Part shown: positions 3,219 to 6,646 of the stretch, piece after piece
How positions within the stretch are numbered: the first letter of the stretch is position 1
Layout: each line of letters opens with the position of its first letter
Source of the DNA: a virus
Taxonomy: Duplodnaviria > Heunggongvirae > Uroviricota > Caudoviricetes
Reading direction: 5' to 3' (one strand)
IMG/VR virus record: IMGVR_UViG_2706794492_000011
DNA: 8,808 nt
Position numbers and translations under genes: made by a program
The notes under the pieces: model-generated
What the model saw: the letters and a program-made list of their open reading frames with translations, nothing else
What the model was told of the DNA's origin: nothing
Database searches by the model: none

Positions 3219-4187
3219 CTACCCCCTGAACCCCGGCGGAATTTCGGTATCCGGTTCAGAAATATGATTCACGCAACGCTGCGCGGGCGAACGCCCCAGG
3301 CGAATAACCAGCTCATCCCATTTTTCCCGGAGTTTTGCCGGACTCATGATGTTTTTTACCCAGAACGAATCCCGTTGAACACGCCCAAACATTTCACAAA
3401 TCTGTCGGTGACTACGTCCATCCAGCATACGCATCATGCGCACATCATTCGCCCAGGTCGTCCAGTTAGGCTCTCTGGGGCGTGATACCTCCCCATCATC
3501 ACTGGCGGCCTGTTCATACAACGCAACAACCCGTCCCCAGATCCACTGTGCACACGTCAAATCCTCCCGGGTTCCCCACTGTCGCTTCGGTACATTCCAG
3601 GTATGCGCATCCGGGTGTTTCTCCAGAAATCGCTCAACTGGTGATGATTGTTTTTCGTCCGGCAGTGAAACGTCCGGACAAGAAGATCTTTTATCTGACG
3701 GATCAGGTTTTAATACTGACGGATCGGGGTCAATCATCGCCCCCCTAATCCGCAGTTTTTTATCAACAGTTGATCCATCAACATTTGACGGGCCAACCGT
3801 TGAGGGGGCAATATTTGACGGGTCATTTTTTGCCTGGCTAATTTTTCTTTTTGGTTTATATGCCTCACGCGCCGCCGCTGCAGCTGCTTCAAGTTTTTCC
3901 ACATTAAGCCGATAGATATTGCTTACGTTACGCCCACCGACCTTACGCTCTTCCTTCGTCAGCCAGCCCTCTTTCGCCAGTTCTGCAATAGCCGATTTCA
4001 CTGTGGATTCACTTCTTGCACCGATCTGACGCCGGATAGTTTCAATGGCAGGCCATGACACGCCCTCGTCATTGCTGTAGTCTGCAAGACGGGCCATAAC
4101 CGCCACCCTGGATAAGATCATGCCGGTGAAGGCGCACCCTTCCCAGACAAGACCATGAAGCTTGCTGCTCATAAAACCCCCGAACAC
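3219..4187 (-). CDS. phage replication initiator (lambda O-like / DnaT-like C-terminus): N-terminal winged helix, DPS-repeat linker, C-terminal domain
   Basis: 322-aa ORF; start is GTG at 4187 or ATG at 4172 (MSSKLHGLVW...). N-terminal HTH-like segment LSRVAVMARLADYSNDEGVSWPAIETIRRQIGARSESTVKSAIAELAKEGWL; linker with repeated DPS/PS motifs; position immediately upstream of the DnaC-like gene. Confidence 0.75.
   Translation of the reverse strand: MFGGFMSSKLHGLVWEGCAFTGMILSRVAVMARLADYSNDEGVSWPAIETIRRQIGARSESTVKSAIAELAKEGWLTKEERKVGGRNVSNIYRLNVEKLEAAAAAAREAYKPKRKISQAKNDPSNIAPSTVGPSNVDGSTVDKKLRIRGAMIDPDPSVLKPDPSDKRSSCPDVSLPDEKQSSPVERFLEKHPDAHTWNVPKRQWGTREDLTCAQWIWGRVVALYEQAASDDGEVSRPREPNWTTWANDVRMMRMLDGRSHRQICEMFGRVQRDSFWVKNIMSPAKLREKWDELVIRLGRSPAQRCVNHISEPDTEIPPGFRG
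3695..3860. repeat. putative replication origin: four 10-bp iteron-like direct repeats plus AT-rich tract, inside the initiator gene
   Basis: CTGACGGATC at 3695-3704 and 3716-3725 (21-bp spacing); TTGACGGGCC at 3785-3794 and TTGACGGGTC at 3815-3824 (30-bp spacing); palindrome TCAACAGTTGA about 3763-3773; AT-rich stretch about 3826-3860 (TTTTTTGCCTGGCTAATTTTTCTTTTTGGTTTATAT). Matches the lambda-type arrangement of ori within the O gene linker. Confidence 0.45.
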
Positions 4188-4946: not shown

Positions 4947-4984
4947 ATTGTTAGTGTTCACTGAACGGTTATAATTGCTAAATG
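4947..4984 (+). promoter_or_regulatory. putative repressor-maintenance (PRM-like) promoter: -10 TATAAT at 4970-4975 about 7 nt before the repressor ATG; adjacent palindrome GTTCACTGAAC (4955-4965)
   Basis: Perfect TATAAT hexamer ending 6 nt before ATG 4982 with no Shine-Dalgarno in between, implying a leaderless mRNA. Weak -35 TTGTTA at 4948-4953. Shares the TGTTCAC half-site with the operator. Confidence 0.4.
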
Positions 4985-5371
4985 GACATGAGAAAAAAGC
5001 AATACGACACCCCGCTGGCAGAAAGGTTAGATACGATCTCGCAACAGCATCATTTAAGCGGTTCAGATTTAGCGCGCATCGCTGGTGTAGGACGCTCATC
5101 AGTCAACGCCTGGAAAAAAAGAGGGACAATCAGTAAAGATTCCGCAGCCAAAATTGCAGAAGCGACAAATGTTTCCCTTTCCTGGCTACTGACAGGAAAA
5201 GAAGATACAAACAGAGAGGCGCTTGATGATGATGAGAAAGCCCTGCTTGATGTTTACAGAAACCTGCCACCTGTAGAGCGTAGAAATATGCTGGCAGCTT
5301 TTCAAATGCGCCTTCAAAAACTGACCGAATTTTACTCAGAATACGTTGACCCAATAACGCGACAAAAATAA
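4982..5371 (+). CDS. dicA: XRE-family phage repressor (DicA/RacR-like): N-terminal HTH plus C-terminal helical domain
   Basis: 129-aa ORF with HTH segment LSGSDLARIAGVGRSSVNAWKK; divergent from the Cro-like gene; followed by terminator and the dicF-dicB arm as in Qin. The symbol is by analogy and recalled similarity, not a database hit. Confidence 0.75.
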   Translation: MDMRKKQYDTPLAERLDTISQQHHLSGSDLARIAGVGRSSVNAWKKRGTISKDSAAKIAEATNVSLSWLLTGKEDTNREALDDDEKALLDVYRNLPPVERRNMLAAFQMRLQKLTEFYSEYVDPITRQK

Positions 5372-5392
5372 TTCTTTATTTTACAAAACAAT

Positions 5393-5415
5393 ACCGCCGG
5401 AAGGCGGTTTTTTTT
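5393..5415 (+). terminator. Rho-independent terminator downstream of the repressor gene
   Basis: ACCGCC-GGAA-GGCGGT perfect 6-bp GC-rich stem with tetraloop, followed by a run of 8 T (5408-5415). Confidence 0.8.
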
Positions 5416-5436
5416 GCCTCTTGCGCATTCACAATG

Positions 5437-5465
5437 TTGACATATGTTCATCTTAAGAGAACAAT
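5437..5465 (+). promoter_or_regulatory. putative promoter of the ydfA-dicF-dicB arm (PL-like) with operator in the spacer: -35 TTGACA (5437-5442), operator TGTTCATCTTAAGAGAACA (5445-5463), -10 AACAAT (5460-5465)
   Basis: Consensus TTGACA, 17-nt spacer, AACAAT. Spacer is 13/17 identical to the ydaS promoter spacer; operator is 16/19 identical to 4909-4927. Confidence 0.55.
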
Positions 5466-5540
5466 ATATCCCATCAAAGCACAACGGTGCGACAGGTCTT
5501 AGTTCCGCCCCCCCCGGCGTTAAGGGCAAATGAGGTCAAC

Positions 5541-5693
5541 ATGGATACGCTCAATCTTGGCAACAACGAATCTCTGGTATGTGGCGTGTTTCCCAATCAG
5601 GACGGCACGTTTACCGCGATGACGTATACCAAAAGTAAAACGTTTAAAACCGAAGCTGCCGCGCATCGCTGGTTAGCCAGAAACGCTAACTGA
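5541..5693 (+). CDS. DUF1391-family small protein (YdfA/YdaF-like), 50 aa
   Basis: MDTLNLGNNESLVCGVFPNQDGTFTAMTYTKSKTFKTEAAAHRWLARNAN; GAGG 6 nt upstream of ATG 5541. The track ORF 5487-5693 extends upstream over the promoter and is not favoured. Matches recalled YdfA/YdaF proteins. Confidence 0.6.
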   Translation: MDTLNLGNNESLVCGVFPNQDGTFTAMTYTKSKTFKTEAAAHRWLARNAN

Positions 5694-5953
5694 TTAGCGC
5701 CAGTAAAAACAGGTTTCCACAGGTTAATTTACCCTGAAAAGTCAGGGCATAACACGAAAGCGCACGGCGAGATCCCTTTGCATATAAGTCTTGCCGTTAA
5801 ATTTCTTCGACCGTGCGCTTCTGGTTGTGGCAATCCGCGAAATGGCGCGGCGGTAAGTATGGCGGGGTTATTCCTTCCCCTTGAGGACACCGGGTTGTCA
5901 GGCTGACCATACGCTTAAGTGACAACCCCGCTGCAACGCCCTCTGTTATCAAT

Positions 5954-6011
5954 TTTCTGGTGACGTTTGGCGGTATCAGTTTTACTCCGTGACTGCTCTG
6001 CCGCCCTTTTT
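5954..6011 (+). ncRNA. dicF: DicF small RNA (ftsZ-targeting sRNA of Qin-type prophages)
   Basis: TTTCTGGTGACGTTTGGCGGTATCAGTTTTACTCCGTGACTGCTCTGCCGCCCTTTTT matches E. coli DicF as I recall it; ends in a GC-rich segment plus T5; about 170 nt upstream of a dicB homologue. Exact ends are approximate. Confidence 0.6.
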
Positions 6012-6180
6012 AAAGTGAATTTTGTGATGTGGTGAATGCGGCTGAGCGCACGCGGAACAGTTAAAACCAAAAACAGTGTTATGGGTGGATTCTCTGTATC
6101 CGGCGTTAATTGTTAACTGGTTAACGTCACCTGGAGGCACCAGGCACCGCATCACAAAATTCATTGTTGAGGACGCGATA

Positions 6181-6369
6181 ATGGAAACGTCACTACCAAA
6201 CGTTAATACGTCTGAAGGGTGTTTTAATATTGGTATTCTGCTCAGTAACCGGGAGTTTACTGAAGACGCCATCAGGATGAGAAAATATGAGCCTTATCTT
6301 CTCAATGATAATTCCATACTCTCCAGAATTGCCCTTCTTGAACTTGGCATTTTCGGAGGGCAGCAGTGA
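6181..6369 (+). CDS. dicB: DicB-like cell-division inhibitor (MinC-activating), 62 aa
   Basis: METSLPNVNTSEGCFNIGILLSNREFTEDAIRMRKYEPYLLNDNSILSRIALLELGIFGGQQ; N-terminal half closely matches recalled K-12 DicB (METLLPNVNTSEGCFEIG...FTEDAI...), C-terminal half diverges. GAGG 8 nt upstream of ATG 6181. Confidence 0.75.
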   Translation: METSLPNVNTSEGCFNIGILLSNREFTEDAIRMRKYEPYLLNDNSILSRIALLELGIFGGQQ

Positions 6370-6554
6370 GTTCAGCGTTTGCACTGATGATGACGGTTTT
6401 TCTTATAACAGGTGAGCCACAGAATGTGATTACCGGAATTTATGCCAGTAAAGAATCCTGCCATCAGGCAAGAGACGAGCAAAAAATTTCCGGTGAATGT
6501 CTCCCGTTAAACAAAGTATCGCTGTACCTGAATAACGAAATACCGGCTGGATAA
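6366..6554 (+). CDS. small protein with hydrophobic N-terminus, translationally coupled to dicB (positional equivalent of ydfD)
   Basis: GTG start at 6366 overlaps the dicB stop (GTGA); GGAGGG 5 nt upstream. Product (V/M)SSAFALMMTVFLITGEPQNVITGIYASKESCHQARDEQKISGECLPLNKVSLYLNNEIPAG. Family assignment uncertain. Confidence 0.5.
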   Translation: MSSAFALMMTVFLITGEPQNVITGIYASKESCHQARDEQKISGECLPLNKVSLYLNNEIPAG

Positions 6555-6646
6555 CCCGCCAGCCGTATTAACGCCATACCCGTTGATTAAGCATGCCAGC
6601 AATAGCAGGGATTCGTACAACCTTAAAATAGTTATGAGGTTTATCA

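Follow-up and report, generated by a model that had tools for sequence, protein, structure and literature searches.

A conserved pseudoknotted RNA upstream of DicF in the dicBF operon leader of an Escherichia coli O157:H7 prophage

The dicF–dicB cassette and its surroundings

The interval described here, positions 5694 to 6180 of a stretch of 8,808 nucleotides that was analysed as a whole (the window), is the well-known dicF–dicB cassette, a cell-division inhibitor module, as carried by a prophage of E. coli O157:H7 that is missing two optional small genes. The window was 100% identical to the O157:H7 prophages adjoining ompW. Based on gene calls with Pfam (DUF1391, DicB, DUF1482 and Phage_CI_repr), homologues of ydfA, dicB and ydfD were found in this order 3' of a DicA-type repressor gene, as in the dicBF operon of the K-12 prophage Qin. 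The features of the operon and its leader are given below.

4982–5371: DicA-like repressor gene (Pfam Phage_CI_repr/HTH_3)
5393–5416, plus strand: intrinsic terminator 3' of the DicA-like repressor gene (terminator scan; 6-bp GC-rich stem and a T7 run)
5437–5465, plus strand: promoter-like site, TTGACA, 17 nt, AACAAT (10 of 12 consensus positions, called by consensus match only)
5541–5693, plus strand: ydfA homologue, DUF1391, 50 aa (Pfam DUF1391, 102 bits; RefSeq WP_000380314.1)
5694–5728, plus strand: junction segment replacing K-12 ydfB, ydfC and 112 nt past ydfC (no alignment to K-12)
5729–5818, plus strand: variable 5' part of the leader, holding a hairpin (5732–5747) and a pairing (5760–5767/5811–5818)
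5819–5944, plus strand: conserved structured RNA element, 126 nt, four helices and a pseudoknot (covariance model R1, 146.8 bits)
5945–5953, plus strand: A/U-rich single-stranded linker, ending at the DicF 5' end (AA↓UUUU)
5954–6011, plus strand: DicF sRNA, 53 nt (5954–6006), with its terminator hairpin and U tract (RF00039)
6014–6165, plus strand: 21-bp stem (6014–6034/6145–6165) enclosing a folded domain, probable RNase III site (minimum-free-energy folds)
6004–6213, plus strand: sub-threshold resemblance to STnc100, with the motif CACCUGGAGGCACCAGGCACC at 6128–6148 (38.4 bits, gathering score 47)
6170–6174, plus strand: Shine–Dalgarno sequence of dicB, GAGGA
6181–6369, plus strand: dicB, second allele class, 62 aa (Pfam DicB, 115.7 bits, positions 1–62 of 62; RefSeq WP_000450222.1)
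6366–6554, plus strand: ydfD-like gene, DUF1482, 62 aa (Pfam DUF1482, 53.8 bits; RefSeq annotation)

The promoter-like site is a candidate promoter of the dicB operon, judging by where it sits, 3' of the repressor gene and 5' of ydfA. The ydfA homologue (85% nucleotide identity to K-12 ydfA) ends at 5693, where a preliminary description of this DNA had placed the end of a DUF1391 gene. The interval is the non-translated central part of the early-left ('dicBF') operon in a lambdoid O157:H7 prophage integrated beside ompW, with the order repressor, promoter, ydfA, leader, DicF, dicB, ydfD-like gene, exonuclease, xis and int. Its leader consists of four parts, namely a variable 5' stretch, the 126-nt conserved RNA, the A/U-rich linker with DicF and its intrinsic terminator, and the 21-bp duplex with its folded domain.

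In comparison to K-12 Qin (ydfABC-dicF-dicB-ydfD), the window shares the promoter-proximal ydfA, an untranslated spacer, an identical DicF, the dicF–dicB spacer, and dicB followed by a ydfD-like gene in the same order. It differs from Qin by the absence of ydfB and ydfC and by a dicB of the second allele class, and the prophage still has the exonuclease, xis and int genes downstream. DicF and DicB are already known from O157:H7 prophages and the layout without ydfBC is common, and the cassette is genuine and ordinary and brings nothing new in itself.

Absence of ydfB and ydfC

The preliminary description regarded ydfB and ydfC as absent or decayed, and alignment with K-12 confirmed the absence. 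Homology to K-12 ended with ydfA (5684) and restarted at 5729, which corresponds to 112 nt past the stop codon of ydfC in K-12; in place of about 490 nt in K-12, the window has about 35 nt, and no part of the window aligned to K-12 L002:2165–2654. Decay found no such backing, as the absence is clean, with a sharp junction and no relics in the alignment. A tblastn search detected YdfB and YdfC at other loci, whereas the arrangement seen here (L001, identical in sequence to the window) had neither. The same junction was present in 411 of 5426 complete E. coli genomes. The gene content upstream varied between loci: ydfABC was found in 40, ydfA only in 32, ydfAB in 11, ydfC only in 4 and none of these genes in 64. 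Thus, ydfB and ydfC are optional cassettes that are missing from this prophage.

The leader had also been described as a structured sequence of about 260 nt sitting where ydfB and ydfC would be expected. Its counterpart turned out to be the 340-nt untranslated ydfC–dicF spacer, which K-12 has on top of ydfB and ydfC, and to which the leader is 92% identical from 5729 on. The variable 5' part (5729–5818) is homologous to K-12 from L002:2655 onward, with 1-nt indels.

DicF and the processing of the transcript

DicF, expected from about 5954, was recovered with the Rfam model RF00039 (76.7 bits compared to a gathering score of 48, E = 5e-16). The match covered the full model (1–52) at 5955–6006 and the sequence is identical to K-12 dicF; the 5' end was set by alignment to the K-12 annotation. 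A terminator hairpin with UUUUU at 6007–6011 completes the module, which lies upstream of dicB (6181) in the same operon, and over DicF and on to 6150 the sequence barely differs from that of K-12.

In K-12, upon loss of the repressor, some transcripts end at the DicF terminator and are trimmed by RNase E to the 53-nt DicF, and read-through transcripts are cut by RNase III to yield a 72-nt DicF (PMC5069750, PMC9438474). Given the sequence identity, both routes would be expected in this prophage as well. The 5' end of DicF is RNase E-dependent (PMC5069750), and the boundary between linker and DicF appears, from its sequence, to fit the RN↓WUU preference of this enzyme. The likely substrate of RNase III is the predicted 21-bp stem, which the preliminary description did not list. 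This assignment is considered probable because the 3' end expected for the published 72-nt DicF (PMC5069750, PMC9438474) falls within the 5' arm of the stem, near 6025, and because the polymorphisms found in both arms lead to wobble pairs (6030, C/U opposite G; 6148, C/U opposite G). A cut in this duplex may also free the dicB mRNA, and the folded domain within it would end beside the dicB ribosome-binding site.

The preliminary description had instead proposed three inverted repeats as signals for RNase III and RNase E in a leader left by the decay of ydfB and ydfC. All three sequences exist, with some of their positions shifted. The hairpin CCCTGA-AAAG-TCAGGG lies at 5732–5747 and not at 5742–5757, the 8-bp repeat was 1 nt off (GCGCACGG, 5760–5767; CCGTGCGC, 5811–5818), and GGTGACG was correctly placed at 5959–5965, with its partner CGTCACC 2 nt away from the position given, at 6125–6131. 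As conserved pairings these repeats, misplaced by 1–10 nt, appear from the homologues to be weakly supported or unsupported. The 8-bp pairing is retained, being mostly invariant, and most of its few changes lead to G-U wobble pairs. However, the outer two pairs of the hairpin were broken in 35 of 68 homologues, and the pairing that brackets DicF varied on the 5' side only, giving mismatches that were not compensated, with its 3' arm lying within a local hairpin in the predicted fold. In addition, the homology of the leader to the K-12 spacer, the lack of ydfB and ydfC relics and the fit of the 72-nt product to the 21-bp stem all stand against this proposal. It is largely refuted and we regard it as highly improbable, and the conserved structures lie elsewhere.

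The overall view of the interval as a structured non-coding RNA did hold. Exact inverted repeats of 8 nt numbered 17 compared to 2.3 in dinucleotide shuffles, and those of 9 nt 10 compared to 0.5, and the folding z-score was -4.76 (5694–6185). Considered one by one, inverted repeats of 7 or 8 nt would arise by chance in a sequence of 487 nt, at 8.6 and 2.3 per shuffle, respectively. The statement that the interval has no open reading frame longer than about 16 codons was correct for ATG starts (longest 15 codons) and failed for TTG and GTG starts, with which a 42-codon frame on the plus strand (5778–5906) and frames of 51–53 codons on the minus strand were found. Phage records carry a 'hypothetical protein' annotation over this stretch, in some cases for the minus-strand frames, in line with a small protein encoded by the TTG-started frame or by the minus-strand frames. 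Against this, 1-nt indels between the window and K-12 fall within the frames, the homologues have indels of 1–6 nt in the P3 hairpin of the RNA described below, and the substitutions are compensatory for RNA pairing; moreover, no Pfam match and no Shine–Dalgarno sequence were found for these frames. Coding potential of the TTG frame and of the minus-strand frames was ruled out by the indels and the substitution pattern, and a small protein has hardly any likelihood left.

A conserved 126-nt RNA with a pseudoknot

As a fallback, the preliminary description had suggested that the region might carry a further unannotated RNA, and this proved to be the most interesting part of the locus. The 126-nt element at 5819–5944 contains the following pairings, all on the plus strand.

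5824–5831/5930–5937: helix P1
5835–5839/5846–5850: helix P2
5864–5867/5877–5880: helix P3
5892–5900/5920–5928: helix P4
5901–5903/5913–5915: pairing P4b
5857–5862/5907–5912: hairpin-loop pseudoknot

Comparison of the homologues identifies the element as a genuine RNA structure, because of several lines of evidence. Among 40 distinct members, in an alignment (A3) of closely related sequences fitted to the model, 96.2% of the cells were paired compared to 36–53% in slid controls, and compensatory (double) changes were seen in 18 of 32 pairs, a number that was reached in 0 of 500 shuffles. RNAalifold by itself recovered P1 to P4, and the G-U pairs make the structure specific to the plus strand. 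At the pseudoknot, one pair was U-A in 217, C-G in 12 and U.G in 6 loci, with no mismatch in all 235. Finally, the element is the best-conserved stretch of the leader, conserved above the stem of DicF itself, and it has near-invariant unpaired nucleotides. The 5' strand of P1 was missing in three members (L014, L051 and L006), which counts against the explanation that we prefer below.

Matches to R1 occurred as a single copy per locus and on the plus strand only, always in sense orientation within an operon leader. The element was found in 4419 of 5426 (about 80%) complete E. coli genomes, K-12 included, and also in P1-type phage-plasmids and Salmonella phages. Its distribution was limited to Enterobacteriaceae phages, from which all the sequences came, with sampling anchored on the P4 loop. 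A scan of genome contigs for a 14-base loop pattern gave almost only chance matches in unrelated phyla, and an E. albertii locus (L141) alone carried the element.

No Rfam match was obtained for the element at E <= 10. In the literature searched on 'dicF-like' and on ydfC sRNA or processing, a structure upstream of DicF was not described; the papers of Faubladier (1990, 1994), which lay outside the scope of this search, may show it. The possible importance of the locus lies in this conserved pseudoknotted RNA, present in most E. coli genomes without an Rfam family.

Possible role of the element at the DicF terminator

We link the element to the control of transcription because of the places in which it occurs. 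In phage P1 it occupies roughly +20 to +150 of the transcript from Pban, which is repressed by C1, and a terminator follows directly. In cdtI, F1055 and pPE4 it lies just 3' of cI/dicA, and no N-like PHROG family adjoined it in cdtI or F1055. An intrinsic terminator followed within 25–66 nt in 35 of 37 representative members, and in this prophage xis and int are located 3' of the terminator. The stems of these terminators vary widely between members and the element is constant.

The P1 homologue (R1 89.2 bits, 68723–68851) belongs to the ban leader, known for its 'dicF-like region' (NC_005856 68791–68892). As in the window, it is in sense orientation, lies behind an early promoter under repressor control and has an intrinsic terminator 3' of it. 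It differs in that the terminator hairpin is unrelated to DicF and has no RF00039 match, that the element starts about 20 nt past the predicted transcription start, and that tRNA genes and ban, and not dicB, are found downstream.

Our best guess, made with low confidence, is that the element is a cis-acting leader RNA which would govern how transcripts divide between termination and read-through at the DicF terminator. It might act in cis on the nascent transcript or on the elongating polymerase, again with low confidence, and would set the share of transcription that passes the terminator that nearly always follows it. One promoter could in this way supply a terminated sRNA as well as the downstream dicB, exonuclease, xis and int, where no N-type antiterminator gene was found alongside. 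A role in antitermination is argued from position and from need, and we put little confidence in it. The full explanation, in which a dicBF operon leader, the DicF processing scheme and a cis-acting element at the terminator are combined, is tentative, with a nearly even chance of being right. Two divergent members (L288 and L308) have no adjacent terminator, which counts against it.

The put RNA makes the polymerase resistant to termination in cis via the zinc-binding domain of the beta' subunit. The put RNAs of phage HK022 are cis-acting antiterminators that bind RNA polymerase (PMC9378689). Like put, the element is folded and has conserved unpaired bases, and it lies upstream of terminators that have to be passed, in an early operon leader under repressor control in lambdoid phages with no N-like gene found; its location in the P1 Pban leader and in cdtI, F1055 and pPE4, with the downstream terminator in 35 of 37 members, resembles that of put. 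In contrast, put is a two-stem RNA of about 70 nt present in each of the two early operons, whereas the element has 126 nt, four helices and a pseudoknot and occurs as a single copy. In the immunity region of HK022 (24500–32600), which holds the put sites and was covered as a whole with R1 as the model, no score exceeded 7.5 bits. With no R1 match in this region and a different architecture, homology to put was rejected. The element could still represent a new type of RNA that acts in cis to modify the elongation complex, by itself or together with host factors. Early operons of lambdoid phages in which no N gene was detected, as well as the P1 ban operon, could then be read through an intrinsic terminator that also yields a DicF-type sRNA, and the job of put would be done by an unrelated pseudoknotted fold. 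We consider this specific form rather unlikely.

A search with R1 found no second copy in the rightward operon, and the presence of one copy per prophage counts against the preferred explanation, as HK022 has put in both operons.

Other known signals were searched for in the leader. In a lambda-type nut site, boxA (YGCTCTTTA) precedes a boxB hairpin and an N gene is close by. The plus strand of 5700–5960 had no boxA match when up to 2 mismatches were allowed, and the boxB-like hairpin at 5732–5747 is not conserved. Similarly, the 12-nt RfaH ops sequence (GGCGGTAGNNTG) had no match within 2 mismatches in the leader; GGCGGTAAGTATGG at 5849–5862 fits ops only with a 1-nt deletion. The missing boxA and ops matches count against the preferred explanation, as does the absence of similarity to the HK022 immunity region in the R1 search.

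Alternatively, the element may serve as a scaffold for biogenesis or stability, formed by the folded 5' portion of the primary transcript that ends at the terminator. It would position RNase E at the linker and/or protect the precursor, and in this way DicF-type sRNAs that differ in their seeds could be released from one chassis. In 35 of 37 members the element is followed by the A/U-rich single-stranded linker and the terminator hairpin with its U tail, the seeds and stems being variable, which would be in line with this, as would the RNase E dependence of the DicF 5' end (PMC5069750) and the discrete RNA of about 180 nt that the P1 promoter, element and terminator would make. However, a pure scaffold leaves the near-invariant unpaired nucleotides and the pseudoknot unexplained, neither the length nor the sequence of the linker is conserved, and L288 and L308 retain the element without any DicF-like module. 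We rate the scaffold as somewhat unlikely.

The persistence of the element without a terminator in L288 and L308 would suit a stable trans-acting RNA, in which the upstream fragment survives the RNase E cut at the DicF 5' end and binds another RNA or, acting as decoy or cofactor, a protein of the host or the phage. Resistance to exonucleases would be expected from the closing helix P1 and the compact fold with its pseudoknot, and the strong conservation of the loop sequences suggests a specific partner. Nevertheless, no promoter of its own was predicted within the leader, the element has no defined 5' boundary and, wherever it occurs, is part of an operon leader in the sense orientation, and we find a trans-acting RNA improbable.

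A structured domain with conserved unpaired bases directly 5' of an intrinsic terminator in a leader also recalls a riboswitch-like attenuator, in which a ligand switches between terminator and antiterminator folds. However, the terminator stems (DicF types, P1 type and L248) are fully different with no matching change in the element, two members have no terminator, and the distribution is limited to Enterobacteriaceae phages. There is no conserved alternative pairing, because the terminators differ completely while the element is constant, and riboswitch-type alternative pairing was ruled out by this variation without compensation. A ligand-controlled attenuator is thus very improbable.

If the preferred control of termination is true, it would explain the expression of dicB, xis and int past the terminator without a detected N protein, as well as the production of sRNA and mRNA from one promoter, and a second fold would join the very small set of RNA-only antiterminators. 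If the element is a scaffold or decoy instead, it would still be an uncharacterised RNA domain in the most-studied bacterium.

dicB and the dicF–dicB spacer

The DicB homologue has 58% overall identity to K-12 DicB, and the divergence of its C-terminal half that had been pointed out is real (about 40% identity, compared to about 75% in the N-terminal half). It is not peculiar to this locus, as this second allele class was present in about 30 of 110 sampled loci.

The Pas sRNA is unrelated to this locus. The dicF–dicB spacer resembles STnc100 (RF02076) in having an outer long stem and the motif CACCNGGAGGCACCNGGCACC, as in the model. True STnc100 copies occupy the late regions of phages, such as the stretch 3' of stx2B (PMC12711010), and with this location and a score below the gathering score, membership of the spacer was ruled out. 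The STnc100 model scored 34.4 bits in K-12 and 39.1 bits in pPE4.

Arrangement of the dicF-dicB operon

Many E. coli O157:H7 chromosomes carry prophages that are 100% identical to the window over 5380-6560, and in FRIK944 the annotated order is helix-turn-helix repressor, DUF1391, dicB, DUF1482, exonuclease, excisionase, integrase and truncated ompW. Because of this identity and gene order, the dicF-dicB interval is assigned, by sequence comparison, to the early-left operon of a lambdoid prophage integrated beside ompW. The following features were identified:

5541-5693, ydfA, Pfam family matched over nearly the full length
5954-6006, the 53-nt DicF RNA, by alignment to the K-12 annotation
5955-6006, DicF, Rfam match with 76.7 bits against a gathering score of 48
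6181-6369, dicB, Pfam family matched over nearly the full length with 115.7 bits
6366-6554, ydfD-like gene, Pfam family matched over nearly the full length

The dicF-dicB cassette reported in the preliminary description was confirmed by the Rfam covariance check, which makes DicF a full member of RF00039, and by the full-length dicB match. It belongs to the Qin-type dicBF operon family, minus ydfB and ydfC, and is itself known and in a common arrangement. In K-12, DicF arises by termination or read-through; RNase E acts on its 5' end, and RNase III generates the long form. This scheme would transfer to the window because the sequences are nearly identical. A run of 149 N was observed at 265-413, and the ORFs listed over this masked stretch (e.g. 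82-486 and 207-551) are artefacts.

In the alignment with K-12 Qin, homology runs through ydfA to 5684 and is then lost until 5729, the counterpart of a position 112 nt past the K-12 ydfC stop. Between 5729 and the first third of dicB, identity is 92%, with ~5835 to 6150 being almost invariant. Judged from this alignment, ydfB and ydfC are absent, with a sharp boundary and no remnant of either gene in the leader, so that the proposal that they were absent or decayed stands in its first half only. The junction is common to 411 of 5426 complete E. coli genomes. Upstream of the leader, gene content varied freely over 159 sampled loci, with ydfABC (40), ydfA only (32), ydfAB (11), ydfC only (4) or none of these (64). 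In this distribution ydfB and ydfC act as optional cassettes.

A conserved pseudoknotted RNA in the leader

The value of the present finding lies in what the seemingly empty leader contains: a widespread, strongly supported and unclassified fold, associated with an intrinsic terminator in the early operons of phages, which the preliminary description had missed. A sensitive search with the leader detected the element (126 nt, 5819-5944, plus strand) in 4419 of 5426 E. coli genomes, and shorter matches, covering 5835-5930 only, on plasmids of ~90-100 kb that are P1-type phage-plasmids. The match in phage P1 closely follows the C1-controlled ban promoter and coincides in part with a feature annotated as 'dicF-like region'. 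The P1 genome annotation already records the sequence resemblance of P1 to the dicF region. Compensatory changes were evident from aligning the window, K-12 and P1-type sequences. Members gathered from viral contigs and from phage and plasmid records gave a covariance model (R1), and 40 distinct members were aligned (alignment A3), with the following pairings in the window:

5824-5831 with 5930-5937, helix P1
5835-5839 with 5846-5850, helix P2
5864-5867 with 5877-5880, helix P3
5892-5900 with 5920-5928, helix P4
5901-5903 with 5913-5915, P4b, a short extension closing the 9-nt loop UGACCAUAC
5907-5912, in the loop closed by P4b, with the J2/3 strand GUAUGG at 5857-5862, pseudoknot

In A3, which was fitted to the model and consists of closely related members whose sampling was anchored on the P4 loop, 96.2% of the cells form standard pairs compared to 36-53% with the partners slid, and both sides have changed in 18 of 32 pairs (5.5 ± 1.7 in shuffles, none of 500 reaching 18). 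RNAalifold recovered P1-P4 on its own, and the fold is specific to the plus strand owing to G-U pairs in P1 and P4. The sole variable pseudoknot pair was followed in 235 loci sampled with both positions unconstrained, and was U-A in 217, C-G in 12 and U.G in 6, with no non-pairing combination; the C-G state arose in two unrelated backgrounds. No other part of the leader is as well conserved as the element, which is present once per prophage and only on the sense strand. No Rfam family matched it even at E<=10, and no description of the fold was found in Rfam or in the searchable literature, a search that did not extend to the original DicF processing papers.

A coding role of the element was excluded by frame-breaking indels and the compensatory pattern of substitutions. 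Several phage records have 'hypothetical protein' genes across it, mostly on the opposite strand (window 5729-5952, minus strand; L250 3544-3999; and others), and the pattern of indels and covariation suggests that these calls are spurious.

The inverted repeats described previously all exist, although several coordinates were wrong: the hairpin lies at 5732-5747 (10 nt off), GCGCACGG and CCGTGCGC at 5760-5767 and 5811-5818 (1 nt off) and CGTCACC at 6125-6131 (2 nt off). The statement that no ORF exceeds about 16 codons holds for ATG starts only, as there is a TTG-started ORF of 42 codons (5778-5906) and minus-strand ORFs of 51-53 codons. Self-complementarity of the region is far above chance (17 exact 8-nt inverted repeats vs 2.3 in shuffles; folding z-score -4.76), but any one 7-nt or 8-nt repeat, taken singly, is to be expected by chance. 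The three structures proposed as processing signals were checked against true homologues. In the hairpin, 35 of 68 variants have lost the outer two pairs, a few variants show compensatory change, and at best a 4-bp core would be kept. The pairing of 5760-5767 with 5811-5818 is nearly invariant, and its few changes, mostly to wobble pairs, are no more than compatible with pairing. The pairing of 5959-5965 with 6125-6131 around DicF was not upheld, with changes on the DicF side only, mismatches in up to 16 of 87 sequences and no compensation; its 3' arm falls within a local hairpin of the predicted fold. The earlier account was thus partly wrong in its coordinates and partly in which structures matter.

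Genomic contexts and possible role of the element

In phage P1 the element begins ~20 nt past the predicted Pban transcript start and is followed by the terminator GCCCAUCUUCGGGUGGGC-U7. Phage cdtI, Salmonella phage F1055 and phage pPE4 carry it, without ydfABC, a few hundred nt downstream of cI or dicA, a position corresponding to that of nutL-N in lambda and putL in HK022; the genes adjacent to it in cdtI and F1055 revealed no N-like family. An intrinsic terminator follows the element within 25-66 nt in 35 of 37 representative members. Its stem and loop are highly variable, comprising DicF proper, several DicF-like variants and unrelated hairpins, whereas the element is constant. This terminator variation, to which nothing in the element corresponds, makes a classical riboswitch-type attenuator unlikely.

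The divergent members L288 (5068-5196) and L308 (4999-5127) have no terminator and lead straight into a long stem. No other members diverge as far, and P1 and P4 have undergone many compensatory changes in both; a DicF-like terminator is lacking, and the surroundings are non-coding (~1 kb in L288). The 5' strand of P1 is missing in three members. A short motif, CGAAA..GCGC.CGGCG, is repeated in the window at 5748-5769 (variable 5' leader) and 5832-5853 (P2/J2-3), and two loci, L014 and L365, look like deletions between its copies that removed this strand. In pPE4, recorded as an Actinobacillus phage and E. coli-like in the element region, a tandem duplication (L006 3119-3330) extends from the 3' strand of P1 through the terminator, with CCCCGCCACAAC...TTTTTAAAGTGAATTTTGTGAT occurring twice.

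Our best guess, a tentative one, is that the element may act in cis to control the elongation complex. In every context it lies in a repressor-controlled early-operon leader, just before a terminator to be passed for expression of the downstream genes, which in the window prophage are dicB, the exonuclease, xis and int. The conserved unpaired bases and the pseudoknot point to a specific macromolecular partner. A scaffold for sRNA biogenesis fits in part: it matches the constant succession of element, linker and terminator, but agrees less well with the near-invariant loops and the two terminator-less members. An independent stable RNA would be a further, less probable reading. If elongation control is right, the element would work similarly to the put RNAs of HK022 without being a member of their family, as put is ~70 nt with two stems whereas the element has 126 nt, four helices and a pseudoknot in a single copy; R1 found nothing in the HK022 immunity region. 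Neither the lambda boxA nor the RfaH ops sequence is present in the element. At 5849-5862, GGCGGTAAGTATGG needs three mismatches to the ops consensus GGCGGTAGNNTG; removal of one A would give a match, and the resemblance is probably coincidental. A perfect boxA-like CGCTCTTTAA (L248 3185-3194) was observed in a prophage on a Salmonella plasmid, ~50 nt past the element's terminator, and may be a separate nut-type site of that phage.

The dicF-dicB spacer

Directly after the DicF U tract, the predicted fold pairs 6014-6034 with 6145-6165 in 21 consecutive bp, which a weaker pairing of 6007-6013 with 6167-6173 extends as far as the dicB Shine-Dalgarno sequence (6170-6174). Frequent polymorphisms in either arm lead to wobble pairs (C or U at 6030 and at 6148, each opposite G). 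A 72-nt DicF has been described as an RNase III product of the full-length transcript (PMC5069750, PMC9438474). Counted from 5954, such a product would end at ~6025, in the middle of the 5' arm, and the duplex is a probable RNase III cleavage site.

The domain enclosed by the stem was considered as STnc100 (RF02076) and rejected as a family member, its Rfam score being sub-threshold (38.4 bits vs 47). Sub-threshold STnc100 matches of 33-39 bits against this gathering score were seen in the window (6004-6213), L006 (3266-3450) and L005 (2842-2961); their sites are the spacer ahead of dicB or kil and, in phage P1, a position ahead of tciA. These matches have the motif CACCNGGAGGCACCNGGCACC in common (window 6128-6148) and may represent an STnc100-related RNA module that recurs between phage genes. 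Phages of the cdtI and F1055 types have another long stem after the terminator (ACAGAGAAGAGCA...UGUUCUUCUCUGU), and the end of this stem lies shortly before the first gene downstream; the succession of terminator, long duplex and ribosome-binding site is conserved, but not the sequence. This stem was located as follows:

L250, ~3640-3790
L249, ~3700-3800
L288, ~5196-5330

DicB alleles

The divergence noted in the C-terminal half of the dicB homologue is real: the window DicB is full-length with 58% identity to K-12, and most differences are C-terminal. It is also common, as DicB from 110 sampled loci fell into two allele classes, with ~30 in that of the window (…MRKYEPYLLNDNSILSRIALLELGIFG…). 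The classes differ mainly after residue 32, and one sampled protein is a recombinant between them.
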